A stretch of 31,589 nt of DNA, from NCBI GenBank assembly GCA_964465995.1, contig CAYXLV010000001.1, forward strand, positions 1 to 31,589, given 5' to 3'. A program made the position numbers and the translations under genes. This document shows positions 4,064 through 27,085 of this stretch, in pieces. The first letter of the stretch is position 1. The number at the start of each line of letters is the position of its first letter. The stretch is from an uncultured Coxiellaceae bacterium. GTDB lineage: Bacteria; Pseudomonadota; Gammaproteobacteria; Coxiellales; Coxiellaceae. A model generated the notes under the pieces. That model was not told where the DNA came from. It did no database searches and was given only the letters and a program-made list of their open reading frames with translations.

Positions 4064-4094
4064 GCACGCTAGCTCAGCACCGAGTATCGGTAGG

Positions 4095-4181
4095 GTTTCA
4101 ATTACCAATGGAAGCTTTTGCTAATAACTTTCCATTGCTAATGGAAACATGCTAGCATAAGTTTCCATTGACAATAGAAAC
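4095..4181. repeat. Three 21-bp imperfect palindromes at exact 33-bp period, consensus GTTTCCATTGNCAATGGAAAC
   Basis: 4095 GTTTCAATTACCAATGGAAGC; 4128 CTTTCCATTGCTAATGGAAAC; 4161 GTTTCCATTGACAATAGAAAC; 12-bp spacers. Confidence 0.9.
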
Positions 4182-4189
4182 CTTAGGTA

Positions 4190-12879: not shown

Positions 12880-12966
12880 AAAAACACTCAGTTATAAAAC
12901 AGCGGCCATTGTGCCAACGATCAAACGCGCGTTTCAATACGGGGTGTGTGGTTAATGATTAAACAT

Positions 12967-13174
12967 GAAAGCGAATTTGAAATTATTTTTTTTGTGAGTT
13001 TAGCTTGTTAAGTCTTGCGTATTAATTTAAAACCGAAGCTTGTATTATTGGGCAACCTCTCACTAGCGTTCGTGGCTGTGTTTTCCAAATCATTTGCCAA
13101 CGCCTGACATCACAGCCACGAACGCTAGTGAGAGGTTGCCTAACGATATTAGCTGCGGTGTGAGTGTAATGTGA
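12967..13174. repeat. 208-bp dispersed structured element, copy 1 (long hairpin)
   Basis: Perfect 30-bp inverted repeat 13051-13080 / 13111-13140 around a 30-nt loop; second copy at 26109-26316. Confidence 0.93.
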
Positions 13175-13188
13175 AAGAGGAGAAATCA

Positions 13189-14142
13189 TTGCCATTAACG
13201 ATAGTATTTGCCGGAACACCTTCATTTGCCGTCCCCGTGCTAGAAAAGCTACTAACCTCAGAACATCAAATCATCGCCGTTTACACCCAACCTGACCGTC
13301 CCGCCGGACGCGGGCGACAACTGAGTGCCAGTCCTGTGAAACAAGTAGCCCAGCAACACGCACTACCCATTTACCAACCAGAATCTTTACGCGATACCAC
13401 CGCACAGCAACAACTTGCCGCACTACATCCTGATGTGATGGTCGTGGTGGGTTACGGGATGATCCTACCAGAAGTAGTATTAAATATTCCCAAATACGGC
13501 TGCTTGAACGTGCACCCATCATTGCTACCAAAGTGGCGTGGCGCCACACCGGTGCAAAGTGCAATTCTAGCAGGCGATACCGAAACCGGCGTTGCGGTTA
13601 TGCAGCTCGATAAAGGCATGGACAGCGGCGATATTTTGCAGTGCGAAACCACTACAATCGGCGCTGAGGAAACCAGCGGCGAACTGTATGACCGACTGTT
13701 TACCCAAGGCGCTGATTTACTGCTACGCACTTTAGCTGACGTCGAGACCCAACAAGTAAAAGCGCGACCGCAACAACATGACCAAGCCACATTCGCAAAA
13801 AAAATCACCAAAGCCCAAGCAGAAATCGATTGGCAGTTACCCGCCAGCAAAATTCACCAACAAATCCGGGCCTTTAACCCATGGCCCGTCGCTTACACAT
13901 ATTTTAAACAACAGCCTTTAAAGATTTGGCAAGCAAGCCCGGTCGCTGGTGATACGGATGACGCACCAGGGACGATTGTTGAAGTCAGTAAAACCGCCTT
14001 GGATATTGCAACTGGTCAAGGAATATTGCGTTTGCAAAAAGTCCAACAACCTGGCAAAAAAGCAATGGCGATAAAAGATTTTATCAACGCCAATCAAACA
14101 TCACTTAAAGTCGGGGAGCTCATTCACCATCATGCTAAGTAG
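13189..14142 (+). CDS. fmt: Methionyl-tRNA formyltransferase
   Basis: 'IVFAGTPSFA', 'TQPDRPAGRG', 'NVHPSLLPKWRGATP', 'MQLDKGMDSG', 'RAFNPWP'. TTG 13189 with GAGGAG SD at 13177-13182 (ORF track start 13171). Confidence 0.96.
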   Translation: MPLTIVFAGTPSFAVPVLEKLLTSEHQIIAVYTQPDRPAGRGRQLSASPVKQVAQQHALPIYQPESLRDTTAQQQLAALHPDVMVVVGYGMILPEVVLNIPKYGCLNVHPSLLPKWRGATPVQSAILAGDTETGVAVMQLDKGMDSGDILQCETTTIGAEETSGELYDRLFTQGADLLLRTLADVETQQVKARPQQHDQATFAKKITKAQAEIDWQLPASKIHQQIRAFNPWPVAYTYFKQQPLKIWQASPVAGDTDDAPGTIVEVSKTALDIATGQGILRLQKVQQPGKKAMAIKDFINANQTSLKVGELIHHHAK

Positions 14143-16745: not shown

Positions 16746-18086
16746 TTAGTGTTTATTCCAAGCGCTTTGCCAGGCGAGCAGCTCAGCCTCGCTCACTTGA
16801 TAGCGGACGAAGTTTCCAATGTGTAGATTCATGAGCTCTTGCTCAATAATCGCTTGAAACTGCGCTTGATGATCGGCGGGAATTTCATGCTCCATCCATT
16901 GACGGATAAATGAAATCACCTGCTGTTGATTCACTTTGTCTAAAATAATTTTTTGCACAATGGCTTTAATTGCTGCTCGGTATTGCATTTTGAATGGGTC
17001 AGGGAGGTTGGCGTTGTCTTTGATCACTTTGTAACGTCTGACAGAATGTTCATAGCCTGAAATAAATAACGACATCAGCAGGCGAATATCATTCAATTCA
17101 TAAACTGCTAACACCGCATCAATATAATCATCTGTTTGTATATTGGTAAATGACAGCGGCGCTAGATTTTTTTTAATAAAAGGAATGTTGGCAGCAAGTC
17201 TTGAGACTCGTTTATTAAAATCCTCAAAAGCCTGTAAATATGGAATATGCACCAATAGAAAAAAAGCCGCCTCAAACGGGTCATGTATGGCAGCCGCTTT
17301 ATCAACAATTTCATGAAAGTAAGTTTCAAGCCGCGCTGGAATCTCTAATGGTTGATAGGAAGTTCTGCTCACCCCAGCCGGGATTTTCCTAAGATTGCCA
17401 ATGCTTTCTGGATTGCTGATTAAGTTATCTGACAGCAGAGCATGCAGATTAAGAATGCTTTGTTTATTAATGGTGATATGTTCTATTGACTCAATCAGAA
17501 ACTCGATTGCTGCTTTATGATTTAAAATCATTTGCGTTTCTTCCACTTTTTTATCAGCGTTTTGTTGATGATGAAGCAGCAGTTGCTCAGTTTCCAGGAG
17601 TGAATAGGTATTACCTTCCAGGCGGCTAGAGTTCCAGGAAAGGTCTAACAGAAAGCGATGAAAAATAATTTTTGCATAAGTGCCTTCTGGCTGATCACCA
17701 TCGGGTTGCTGTCCAATAGTTTTTAAATGTTCCCTGACTGCTGTTGGCAGGTAATAAGTGGTGTTTGGGATATAGGCGCGCAAAAAGTCTTCTCGGTATT
17801 CGGTTTTTTCTCGTTGTGATAGTGGTTGATTTAAATAAGCTTTGATGGCTTTGAGTTCTGCATCGGTGGCAAGTGGCAGCGCAGGGTTTGGTTGGTGGGC
17901 AAAATAGCGAGTGCTGCGTGCTTTCCCCTCGCGCGTAATTTTATTTTCCTGGACCAGTTGATGTAATTCGCGTTGGATGCTACGTTTTGATCGATCAGCC
18001 GCCAACCGTTCAGTGATCTCCTGAAGTTGGAGGCCTTCTGGGTGGTGATGCAGGAGTTCTATGATTTGTTGTGTATAGCTTGTCAT
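16746..18086 (-). CDS. Fic-family protein with N-terminal winged HTH and a non-canonical Fic motif
   Basis: HTH 'EGLQLQEI...RSIQRELHQL...GKARSTRY'; 'SWNSSRLEGN'; Fic-like core 'YLQAFEDFNKRVSR'. Confidence 0.88.
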   Translation of the reverse strand: MTSYTQQIIELLHHHPEGLQLQEITERLAADRSKRSIQRELHQLVQENKITREGKARSTRYFAHQPNPALPLATDAELKAIKAYLNQPLSQREKTEYREDFLRAYIPNTTYYLPTAVREHLKTIGQQPDGDQPEGTYAKIIFHRFLLDLSWNSSRLEGNTYSLLETEQLLLHHQQNADKKVEETQMILNHKAAIEFLIESIEHITINKQSILNLHALLSDNLISNPESIGNLRKIPAGVSRTSYQPLEIPARLETYFHEIVDKAAAIHDPFEAAFFLLVHIPYLQAFEDFNKRVSRLAANIPFIKKNLAPLSFTNIQTDDYIDAVLAVYELNDIRLLMSLFISGYEHSVRRYKVIKDNANLPDPFKMQYRAAIKAIVQKIILDKVNQQQVISFIRQWMEHEIPADHQAQFQAIIEQELMNLHIGNFVRYQVSEAELLAWQSAWNKH

Positions 18087-18134: not shown

Positions 18135-18242
18135 GAATCGCGCCAAGAATCGTGCCAAAAGGGGGTAAAACTGGCCGAATCGTGCCAAGAATCGCGCCAA
18201 AATGGGATTAAGCTGCCCTAATCGCGCCAAAAATCGCGCCAA
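18135..18242. repeat. 42-bp tandem repeat (~2.6 copies) built from 12-mer doublets GAATCGYGCCAA
   Basis: 12-mers at 18135, 18147, 18177, 18189, 18219 and 18231; 18-bp linkers at 18159-18176 and 18201-18218 are 13/18 identical. Confidence 0.93.
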
Positions 18243-18263: not shown

Positions 18264-18542
18264 TTATTTTTTTATCGCAAATGTTTCAAATTTCTCAGGC
18301 GGGATTTCTTCCCAATGAACATTGCTGACCTCGGCTTGGGGTGGGCCTTGCCAGAGCCAATCGGTGAGTTCCATAACGTGATCACGGTCGCCAAGCGCGA
18401 TAAGCTCGACATTGCCATCGTCGGTATTTTGAACCCAACCAGTGAGTTGCAGACGTTCGGCTTCTTTTTGCGTGCTGTCGCGAAAGAAGACGCCTTGGAC
18501 TTTGCCGGAGATAACCGCTTTGATACAGATAGTTTGATTCAT
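18264..18542 (-). CDS. acyP: Acylphosphatase
   Basis: 'ISGKVQGVFFR', 'LTGWVQN..DGNVE', 'WLWQGPPQAEV'. Confidence 0.93.
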   Translation of the reverse strand: MNQTICIKAVISGKVQGVFFRDSTQKEAERLQLTGWVQNTDDGNVELIALGDRDHVMELTDWLWQGPPQAEVSNVHWEEIPPEKFETFAIKK

Positions 18543-25997: not shown

Positions 25998-26069
25998 CGT
26001 CATCCCGCGGCCACGACCGCGGGACCCAAGAACATCTCCTAGATTGCGCGATCGAGTCGCGCAATGACG
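25998..26069. repeat. REP/RPE-like double-hairpin palindromic element
   Basis: Terminal CGTCAT/ATGACG; hairpin TCCCGCGG-6-CCGCGGGA (26003-26024); hairpin ATTGCGCGA-5-TCGCGCAAT (26043-26065). Confidence 0.75.
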
Positions 26070-26108
26070 ATGCGTCCCGTCGCGTACTAATCATTACCCA
26101 CAAGTCAG

Positions 26109-26316
26109 GAAAGCAAATTTGAAATTATTTTTTGTGGGTTTAGCTTCTTTAAGTGTTGCATATTAATTTAAAACCGAAGCTTTTATTATTAGGCATCCTC
26201 TCACTAGCGTTCGTGGCTCAGTTTTCATGCATTGGCAGAAGGCTGTGACAACTGAGCCACGAACGCTAGTGAGAGGTTGCCTAACAATATCAGCTTGTGG
26301 TGCGAGTTTAATGTGA
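26109..26316. repeat. 208-bp dispersed structured element, copy 2 (long hairpin)
   Basis: 33-bp inverted repeat with one mismatch, 26191-26223 / 26250-26282; same orientation as copy 1; about 88% identical outside the loop core by hand alignment. Confidence 0.93.
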
Positions 26317-26503
26317 GGGGTGTGGCCATTTTTTTATGCGAGACACGGTTTTTGGCAGTAAAAATAAGACTTGTGAGTAAAGATTAGGTCGCGCAACGAC
26401 GGTTGCTTAAGAGTCACGCAATGACGTTACGCTAATAATTGTCAAATCAACAATGAAATCGTTACAATGACATGACTTTTCACGATGACTCAAGGAAACA
26501 TTG

Positions 26504-27085
26504 ATGCGACGACTCAGTTTAACCGGCTTAATGCTGATACTTTTAATCGCCTTAAATATCCTTAGCTACGCTTCCAACAACAAACAACACCAACAAATAC
26601 TCCAACTATCCAAACAAGTCCTAACCGCCCTAAAAACCCAAAACATACAAAAGCTAGCCAGCTACGTGCACCCAACAAAAGGTGTGCGTTTTACTTTTAA
26701 GACTACGATTAGCCACCAAGACCAACAATTCCAACGCGCACAACTGATTAAAGCCTATAAAAGTCAAAAAAAACTCCTATGGGGTTATCAAGACGGCACC
26801 GGCAAGCCGATAAAATATACTTTCAAACAATACTTATCTAAGGTTGTTTATCATCACGACTATTTGCACGCACCAAAAATTGGCTACAACCAAATCCTGC
26901 ATCGCTCAAACAACATCGATAACAGCAAACAATACTATCCACGCGCCATTATGGTGCAATATTATTTCCCGGGATTTAAAAAACAATATGGTGGATTAGA
27001 TTGGTCAGGGCTACGTTTATTCTTCACGCAATATAAAAATCACTGGTACCTAGTGGGCGTGGTCAACGATCGGTGGGCTATTTAA
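26504..27085 (+). CDS. Secreted conserved hypothetical protein
   Basis: Signal peptide; 'VHPTKGVRF', 'WGYQDGTG', 'YYFPG...GLDWSGLRLFF...WYLVGVVNDRW' looks like a conserved uncharacterised family. ATG 26504 with AAGGA SD. Confidence 0.75.
   Translation: MRRLSLTGLMLILLIALNILSYASNNKQHQQILQLSKQVLTALKTQNIQKLASYVHPTKGVRFTFKTTISHQDQQFQRAQLIKAYKSQKKLLWGYQDGTGKPIKYTFKQYLSKVVYHHDYLHAPKIGYNQILHRSNNIDNSKQYYPRAIMVQYYFPGFKKQYGGLDWSGLRLFFTQYKNHWYLVGVVNDRWAI

Follow-up and report, generated by a model that had tools for sequence, protein, structure and literature searches.

A candidate mobile palindromic repeat in two intergenic copies, one directly upstream of fmt, on a contig of an uncultured Coxiellaceae bacterium

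Contig CAYXLV010000001.1 (assembly GCA_964465995.1) of an uncultured Coxiellaceae bacterium, analysed here over its whole stretch of 31,589 nt (the window), carries two copies of an intergenic element of about 210 nt that contains a very long hairpin. With modest confidence, the element is regarded as a new palindromic repeat resembling MITEs (transposable elements of the miniature inverted-repeat type), REPINs and Correia elements, and as co-transcribed with its neighbours. The sequence family is new, and its general kind is already known. Two copies and one strain variant do not establish its status as a family. The mobile or repetitive reading is favoured because of the sharp boundaries of the copies, the inverted repeat enclosing one of them, the palindrome at their left edge, a repeat-rich spacer, a break in synteny, the lack of a terminator, and an assembly break. 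A previous sequence-only reading of this DNA had proposed several candidates, and the ERIC- or RPE-like mobile hairpin is the best supported of them, by the flanking inverted repeat, the synteny break, the repeat-rich spacer and the assembly break.

Both copies lie between genes in the same orientation, 13.14 kb apart, and repeat families D3, D5 and D17 are spaced by 13141–13142 nt. The pairing of 12967–13174 with 26109–26316 was obtained by blastn-short (E 1e-31), and both copies were recovered by nhmmer within the window (E ~1e-73), which yielded no third copy there. The two were described before as equal in length and about 88% identical, and this holds: 158/179 positions (88%) agree outside the apical 30 nt. 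In each copy, the very long hairpin is preceded by an AT-rich 5' module of 45 nt that forms a small, weak hairpin (Table 1). Identity is 87% in the 5' module, 94% in the outer left arm, 87% in the inner left arm, 94% in the inner right arm, 82% in the outer right arm, and 37% in the apical region. The inner stem does not differ significantly in conservation from the rest of the element (Fisher p = 0.63), and the idea that it is the better conserved part was dropped for this reason. The homology edges of both copies are sharp and the flanks are unrelated (alignments A1 and A3). Upstream, the homology reaches as far as a TAATSATTA palindrome. This pattern has two matches in the window (0.47 expected), each just upstream of one copy, and may mark where the element really begins on the left, an insertion target, or a protein-binding site.

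Copy 2 is located in a spacer of 554 nt crowded with small palindromes resembling repetitive extragenic palindromic (REP) units. It is enclosed by an outer inverted repeat, the arms of which match as reverse complements at 22/26 positions (0/500 shuffles as good) and pair in the DNA fold. A direct GTCGCG (6 bp) flanks the 20-nt outer arms, giving a composite at 26087–26387. Copy 2 with its outer arms looks like a unit of about 300 nt bounded by terminal inverted repeats and accompanied by a 6-bp duplication. Around copy 2, the + strand has three occurrences of the motif GTCRCGCAAYGACG (26043–26069, 26388–26401 and 26413–26426; 0.53 expected). Its reverse complement reads CGTC and then RTTGCGYGAC, and at 26043–26065 it forms a hairpin with a 9-bp stem (ATTGCGCGA tcgag TCGCGCAAT). 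These units look like a small CGTC-tagged REP-like family. ENA contig scaffold_7683 (L004) stops at 26141, which is 36 nt inside copy 2 and within the T-run of its 5' module; this is consistent with a break of the assembly graph at a repeat or at a T-run of variable length. The spacer has two GC-rich hairpins. At 26004–26023, 58 nt past the cytochrome c1 stop, a GC-rich hairpin (CCCGCGG ccacga CCGCGGG) without a T-run may stabilise the petABC transcript at its 3' end, or may itself be one more of the small palindromic repeats. Downstream of copy 2, an open reading frame (ORF) of 194 aa (26501–27085) has no match in Pfam or NCBIfam and overlaps a Ca/Na antiporter gene at the latter's start.

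Copy 1 stops 1 nt short of the Shine-Dalgarno (SD) sequence of fmt, as the sequence-only reading had noticed; fmt has a family match, and an independent gene call of 317 aa comes from another assembly of the same sample (L001). In three relatives (L008, L010 and L011; DprA 50–52% identical) the locus is ordered rsmB<-fmt<-def, followed by LysM->dprA->smg->topA. The window retains an intact dprA-smg-topA-yrdC but lacks def, the LysM gene and rsmB, and what follows fmt there is a permease gene for tyrosine/aromatic amino acids (tyrP-like). Copy 1 fills the gap between dprA and fmt (12880–13188), where the relatives have def and the LysM gene. Compared with the three relatives, the position of copy 1 is thus a rearrangement junction, and the def-fmt operon, which is near-universal, is split here. 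With the promoter of the def operon lost, fmt would have to be transcribed through or from the element. GGGGTGTG has two occurrences in the window, at 12941–12948 (to the left of copy 1's TAATGATTA) and at 26317–26324, and this pair could point to a unit that is longer or permuted; it was noticed post hoc, with a chance probability of about 0.06–0.1. The look-alike of an outer-repeat arm on the left side of copy 1 (15/20), which has the opposite orientation, is marginal, with 6/11 matches at the remaining positions once the shared TAATSATTA is discounted. Being post hoc and marginal, the GGGGTGTG flank and the arm look-alike are not relied on.

The long hairpin is exceptionally stable in both copies. 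The 221-nt stretches fold with energies of -94.1 (copy 1) and -97.1 kcal/mol (copy 2), corresponding to z-scores of -10.2 and -9.4, and 0/200 shuffles are as good. The arms of copy 1 are 73 nt long and 78% complementary (inverted repeat I2), those of copy 2 51 nt and 90% (inverted repeat I3; 26177–26227 / 26246–26296). Pairing was counted over 52 pairs in three sequences, namely copy 1, copy 2 and the L001 variant of copy 1, which differs from it by one base. L001 (ENA ERZ23499406, scaffold_5899) equals the window over 4715 nt save for a single T-to-C at 13046 in the left arm of copy 1, which turns a T.G wobble into a C-G pair. Standard pairs occupy 98.7% of the cells, as against 28–46% when the partner column is slid. 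Three pairs are altered on both sides. Two adjacent pairs at the stem top are swapped on both sides between the copies (Table 1), G.U changes to A-U at columns 78/232 and 109/200 of alignment A3, and one pair reads U.G, C-G and U-A across the three sequences. Three other pairs alternate between G.U and Watson-Crick, and two are broken in copy 2; one-sided G.U/Watson-Crick switches number five. Much of the sequence-only description is borne out by these data: the perfect 30-bp inverted repeat, the extension of pairing to about 70 nt per arm in copy 1, the joint change of stem-top pairs, and the G-T wobbles of copy 1 that are Watson-Crick in copy 2.

Independent substitution at 12% divergence was calculated to give about 0.25 double-complementary changes among 52 pairs. 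Because more than this was observed, selection or templating seems to act on pairing, and it is supported that pairing is maintained by something besides independent neutral drift. The covariation between the copies is suggestive and not proven, because only three sequences are available and the observed score is equalled in 33/500 shuffles; slid controls score far lower. The earlier suggestion that the structure is under selection or kept by arm-to-arm conversion is supported in part. Template switching in quasi-palindromes is an established mechanism of mutagenesis. Arm-to-arm templated conversion and selection on an RNA are equally good explanations of the "compensatory" changes, and one template-switching event per copy can suffice for the stem-top swaps together with the scrambled apical bases. 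In both copies the fold of the + strand is better by 7–8 kcal/mol than that of the - strand, and 6 G.U sites on the + strand fall among the 52 counted pairs, a mild hint that this strand matters as a single strand.

At the apex, both copies retain the TTTTC-N19-TGACA frame recognised earlier, with TTTTCA and TGACAA as an imperfect continuation of the stem. The N19 cores had been described as divergent. They are strongly so, with 1/19 positions identical in register, and the divergence of the apical region is far above that of the rest of the element (Fisher p = 7e-8). A residual similarity is present as well: 10/17 positions agree with a 2-nt shift and 11/18 as reverse complement, and gapped alignment compared with shuffles gives p = 0.055 (direct) and 0.025 (reverse complement). 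Because the shifted and reverse-complement matches exceed both the in-register value and the shuffles, the cores appear to have diverged strongly through indels or a flip, and yet not to be unrelated cassettes. Inversion of the loop as the cause of this divergence is neither proven nor needed. The inverted alignment (11/18) is no better than the shifted direct one (10/17), because the loop itself is partly palindromic, and an inversion cannot produce the stem-top swaps. The loops have no match elsewhere in the window above chance (best 10–11 nt, E > 1).

Database searches place the element apart from described families, in agreement with the earlier statement that its family was not recognised. 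Rfam gave 0 matches in the whole window at gathering thresholds. A permissive Rfam scan returned microRNA (miRNA)-precursor models only, the best with 35–38 bits against thresholds of 57–92; these near-matches (MIR399, mir-955, mir-4650 and mir-H2) belong to eukaryotic or viral families, occur on both strands, and reflect generic hairpin shape, not homology. No match was found for an exact stem 20-mer in GTDB genomes, JGI metagenomes and IMG/VR, for a right-arm 31-mer in transition-tolerant purine/pyrimidine (R/Y) code in JGI metagenomes or IMG/VR, or for a 22-mer of the 5' module in IMG/VR, and distant-mode blastn against plasmids and phages detected no further copy. Profiles of two reading frames open across the hairpin, used for a spurious-ORF search of ENA, Logan and NCBI assemblies, retrieved nothing. 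A covariance model of the hairpin (R1), of the kind proposed in the sequence-only reading, recovers with filters off the two copies, with no third one in the window and nothing in the loci of the relatives. The wider copy number that the reading had envisaged has accordingly not materialised in GTDB, JGI, IMG/VR, plasmids or phages. No close relative of the host was present in the searched collections: its DprA has a best identity of 52–53% among 5.8 billion proteins, and the DprA of GTDB loci is 35–36% identical. Other assemblies of the same sample (L001, L004–L007) re-cover the window only, so that the copy comparisons rest on two copies and one variant with a single nucleotide polymorphism (SNP), on one 31.6-kb contig. 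The sole marginal match of R1 is an unrelated hairpin at 4091–4186 (18 bits, E 0.02). It is 96 nt long (-45 kcal/mol, z = -6.6), is made of repeated CAATGGAAA/TTTCCATTG motifs, and stops 4 nt before the start of an AAA_14/DUF4143 ATPase gene (4190).

Both copies are sense to the flanking transcription units, with copy 1 in the fmt leader and copy 2 downstream of petABC, and they are probably transcribed as hairpins embedded in mRNA. In neither copy did a consensus scan detect a sigma-70 site on the + strand, and neither hairpin is followed by an intrinsic terminator. By eye, + strand hexamers can be discerned in the 5' modules, TTGAAA (12977–12982) and TAGCTT (13001–13006) separated by 18 nt in copy 1, below the threshold of the scanner, and the same hexamers with a 16-nt spacer in copy 2 (26119–26146). 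As only a lead, they would place the transcription start at about 13013, where the long hairpin has its base. On the - strand, a promoter-like site in the 5' module of copy 1 (TTAACA-18-AATAAT, 13011 to 12982) points towards dprA, and another one (TTCACA-18-TAATAT, 13175 to 13146) is at the right end of this copy. A promoter-like site with 10/12 matches (26439–26468) would serve the ORF downstream of copy 2.

Among described repeats, REPINs combine inverted arms that are conserved with a spacer that is less so; compensatory changes are frequent in them, and an asymmetric 5' tail lies outside the hairpin (PMC3116915). The element shares with them its intergenic location, conserved arms (82–94%) against a 37% apical region, pair changes on both sides, and the 5' tail. 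However, REPIN arms are REP units of about 25 nt, small palindromes tagged GTAG or CGTC, whereas the arms of the element (e.g., GGGCAACCTCTCACTAGCGTTCGTGGCTGTG) measure 50–73 nt, and no such tag or internal REP-like palindrome was found in them. The CGTC-tagged units adjoin copy 2 only in its flanks and differ from the element in sequence. REPINs also number tens to hundreds per genome and are mobilised by, or adjoin, one RAYT gene, whereas the element has two copies and no RAYT in the window.

Correia elements are described as supplying promoters at their ends, binding IHF and being RNase III substrates (PMC2649163). Correia and ERIC repeats resemble the element as palindromic intergenic repeats of 100–160 nt beside genes, co-transcribed and forming hairpins in mRNA, and copy 1 is placed in a Correia-like manner directly upstream of a gene needing a promoter. 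Correia elements of Neisseria have 26-nt terminal inverted repeats, a TA duplication and hundreds of copies; neither terminal repeats nor a consistent duplication was found for the core of the element. Neither they nor ERIC (Enterobacteria, Yersinia) are similar to it in sequence, and its own promoter activity is conjectural. In Coxiella burnetii, QMITE1 and QMITE2, which are classical IS-derived MITEs, are 150–400 nt long, with 17–28 nt terminal inverted repeats accompanied by direct repeats that are short. They are predicted to fold very stably, insert between genes and in 3' untranslated regions, carry sigma-70 promoters, spawn small RNAs (sRNAs), and associate with REP palindromes as insertion targets (PMC5896051). 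The composite of copy 2 (26087–26387) fits this outline; QMITEs differ in having about 45–80 copies each, while the element has a terminal repeat at one copy, an ambiguous direct repeat and no known parent IS. Likeness to miRNA precursors is limited to a long near-perfect stem with a variable loop, with scores 20–45 bits below gathering.

In the mobile-repeat model, both copies would be members of a non-autonomous family of palindromic intergenic repeats, nearest in behaviour to Correia, ERIC and REPIN. Copy 2 would be the fuller member, bounded by terminal inverted repeats of 20–26 nt (26081/26087–26106 and 26368–26393) with a possible GTCGCG duplication of 6 bp, and copy 1 would be without the right-hand 70 nt and, at its rearrangement junction, fused to the fmt ribosome-binding site. 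The hairpin would stay paired as its folded single strand is mobilised or tolerated; alternatively, template switching that copies one arm from the other may keep it paired and also scramble the apical bases. Hairpins embedded in mRNA could affect its stability or supply promoter hexamers. A cognate transposase or RAYT in the genome would be expected to have ends related to CTAATCWTTACYCACAAGTC. Both mobility and template switching of the element are inferred.

Several observations weigh against this model. The 31.6-kb window encodes no transposase, RAYT, reverse transcriptase, integrase or Y1/HUH domain, so that the cognate HUH/RAYT or insertion sequence (IS) enzyme thought of in the sequence-only reading is not found there, and the known copies are two plus one SNP variant. 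The core ends have no terminal inverted repeat (first against last 45 nt, shuffle p ~0.5), and no consistent target-site duplication was detected at the core flanks with boundaries shifted by up to 6 nt each way. Pairing is strongest centrally, whereas a classical IS-derived MITE pairs best at its termini. Whether GTCGCG is a duplication is ambiguous, as the palindromic CGCG can equally extend the inverted repeat, and the outer repeat, present around copy 2 only, could be a separate host element that the core entered. Finally, the fold advantage of the + strand and its G.U sites are what is expected of an RNA under selection.

A rather unlikely alternative is that the copies are neutral relics, an old palindrome duplicated once by recombination or rearrangement and devoid of function, in which the hairpin persists by quasi-palindrome self-correction through template switching and the apical single strand mutates fastest. 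Such relics would agree with the finding of just two copies, with an inner stem no better conserved than the rest, and with residual loop similarity as a product of common origin and fast change, and the double swap adjacent to the loop may stem from one templated event per copy. They agree less well with sharp boundaries in unrelated contexts 13 kb apart, with TAATSATTA at both copies, and with the inverted repeat enclosing copy 2; moreover, 88% identity over 180 nt against near saturation of the apical 19 nt calls for constraint or for very loop-specific mutation. Two paralogous hairpin sRNA genes are likewise unlikely. Each would have its own promoter (TTGAAA, 16–18 nt, TAGCTT) and a transcript beginning at the base of the long hairpin, a dimeric regulator might bind TAATSATTA about 55–60 nt upstream of the predicted start, and the conserved stem would be processed or recognised while the diverged loop gave each paralogue its specificity. 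The conservation of the 5' module (87%, against 82–94% for the stems), the restriction of TAATSATTA to the upstream regions of the two copies, the coincidence of the predicted start with the hairpin base (I2), the favoured + strand with its G.U pairs, the stem-top swaps on both sides and the excess of apical divergence all speak for such genes. Nevertheless, the + strand hexamers are under the scanner threshold, terminators are lacking in both copies and copy 1 leads straight into the fmt SD, the loops have no above-chance match in the window, no Rfam relative exists, the covariation is not significant with three sequences, and neither the synteny break nor the flanking inverted repeat is accounted for. 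A perfect RNA duplex of 30–33 bp is also unusual for a trans-acting bacterial sRNA, and would be an RNase III substrate.

A stronger form of the RNA explanation, a new class of bacterial hairpin RNA genes with a TAATSATTA-regulated promoter, a recognised 30-bp stem serving, for example, as a module for RNase III or a dsRNA-binding partner, and an exchangeable loop of about 19 nt that programmes the target, is improbable. A new structured RNA family, as put forward in the sequence-only reading, is not established, and is less likely than a repeat. The least probable explanation, and a very improbable one, is a cis-regulatory 5' leader (attenuator, thermosensor or protein-binding) of the downstream + strand genes, which had also been among the earlier candidates. 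It fits copy 1, which abuts the fmt SD, can pair TCTT (13014–13017) with AAGA of the SD in its outermost helix (I2), and precedes an fmt without the usual def-operon promoter, hence presumably transcribed through or from the element. It does not fit copy 2. Both copies had been said to precede a plus-strand gene, but a gene start directly adjoins copy 1 alone; between copy 2 and the next ORF there are 185 nt, which contain other repeats and the better promoter-like site at 26439–26468. The downstream genes are unrelated (fmt versus the 194-aa ORF and then the antiporter), the SD pairing uses a flank not common to copy 2, and relatives, in which fmt follows def, have no such leader. Some further candidates were rejected. 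The copies are not taken as attL/attR of an integrated island, as the 13 kb between them carry genes for the respiratory chain and for other housekeeping functions and the repeats are only 88% identical. For 6S RNA, retron msd, attC, bridge RNA and IS200/605 ends, there was no Rfam match, the architecture is unfit, and no reverse transcriptase, integrase or transposase is in the neighbourhood.

Should the mobile palindromic repeat be the right explanation, the element marks the place where, in an uncultured and deep-branching gammaproteobacterium, a rearrangement broke up the near-universal def-fmt operon, and fmt expression would depend on repeat-derived sequence, a natural MITE-like rewiring of an essential gene. 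The most interesting concrete point is that essential fmt is severed from def and is now directly behind the repeat. The element also adds a sequence family missing from current repeat and RNA libraries, and such families break metagenome assemblies. If, on the minority reading, the hairpin is a real RNA with a programmable loop, it would constitute a new RNA class.

Table 1. Coordinates of the two copies, their parts and the adjoining features in the window.
Feature	Position	Strand	Remarks
Repeat core, copy 1	12964–13174	+	~210 nt; right edge sharp, ...AATGTGA / AAGAGG
Repeat core, copy 2	26106–26316	+	Right edge ...AATGTGA / GGGGTG
5' module, copy 1	12967–13012	+	AT-rich; weak small hairpin; promoter-like hexamers
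TAATGATTA palindrome	12953–12961	.	5 nt upstream of copy 1 core
TAATCATTA palindrome	26088–26096	.	12 nt upstream of copy 2 core; within left outer-repeat arm
Long hairpin, copy 1	13013–13178	+	67 pairs; perfect 30-bp core 13051–13080 / 13111–13140
Long hairpin, copy 2	26157–26315	+	65 pairs in fold of 26154–26320
Stem-top swap, G-C to C-G	13078/13113 vs 26219/26254		
Stem-top swap, T-A to A-T	13079/13112 vs 26220/26253		
Apical region, copy 1	13081–13110	+	TTTTC-CAAATCATTTGCCAACGCC-TGACAT
Apical region, copy 2	26222–26251	+	TTTTC-ATGCATTGGCAGAAGGCTG-TGACAA
fmt Shine-Dalgarno AAGAGGAG and TTG start	13176–13191	+	SD 13176, TTG 13189; directly after copy 1
Look-alike of outer-repeat arm	12943–12962	-	15/20; overlaps GGGGTGTG at 12941–12948
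Outer inverted repeat, left arm CGCGTACTAATCATTACCCACAAGTC	26081–26106	+	Encloses copy 2
Outer inverted repeat, right arm	26368–26393	-	Encloses copy 2
Segment between copy 2 core and right outer arm	26317–26367	+	51 nt; begins GGGGTGTG; absent from copy 1
GTCGCG, possible target-site duplication	26079–26084	+	Partner 26388–26393, the start of REP-like unit GTCGCGCAACGACG

Two tandem repeats were observed elsewhere in the window. A 42-nt unit containing AATCGCGCCAAGAATCGYGCCAA is repeated 2.6 times (84% matches) at 18135–18242, between a gene for a 446-aa Fic/DOC-domain protein (16746–18086) and an acylphosphatase gene (18264–18542). Inside a DUF945 gene on the - strand (189–2192), a 39-nt unit is present in 7.3 copies at 474–758 (86% matches, no indels) and encodes an in-frame 13-residue tract in the C-terminal part of the DUF945 protein.

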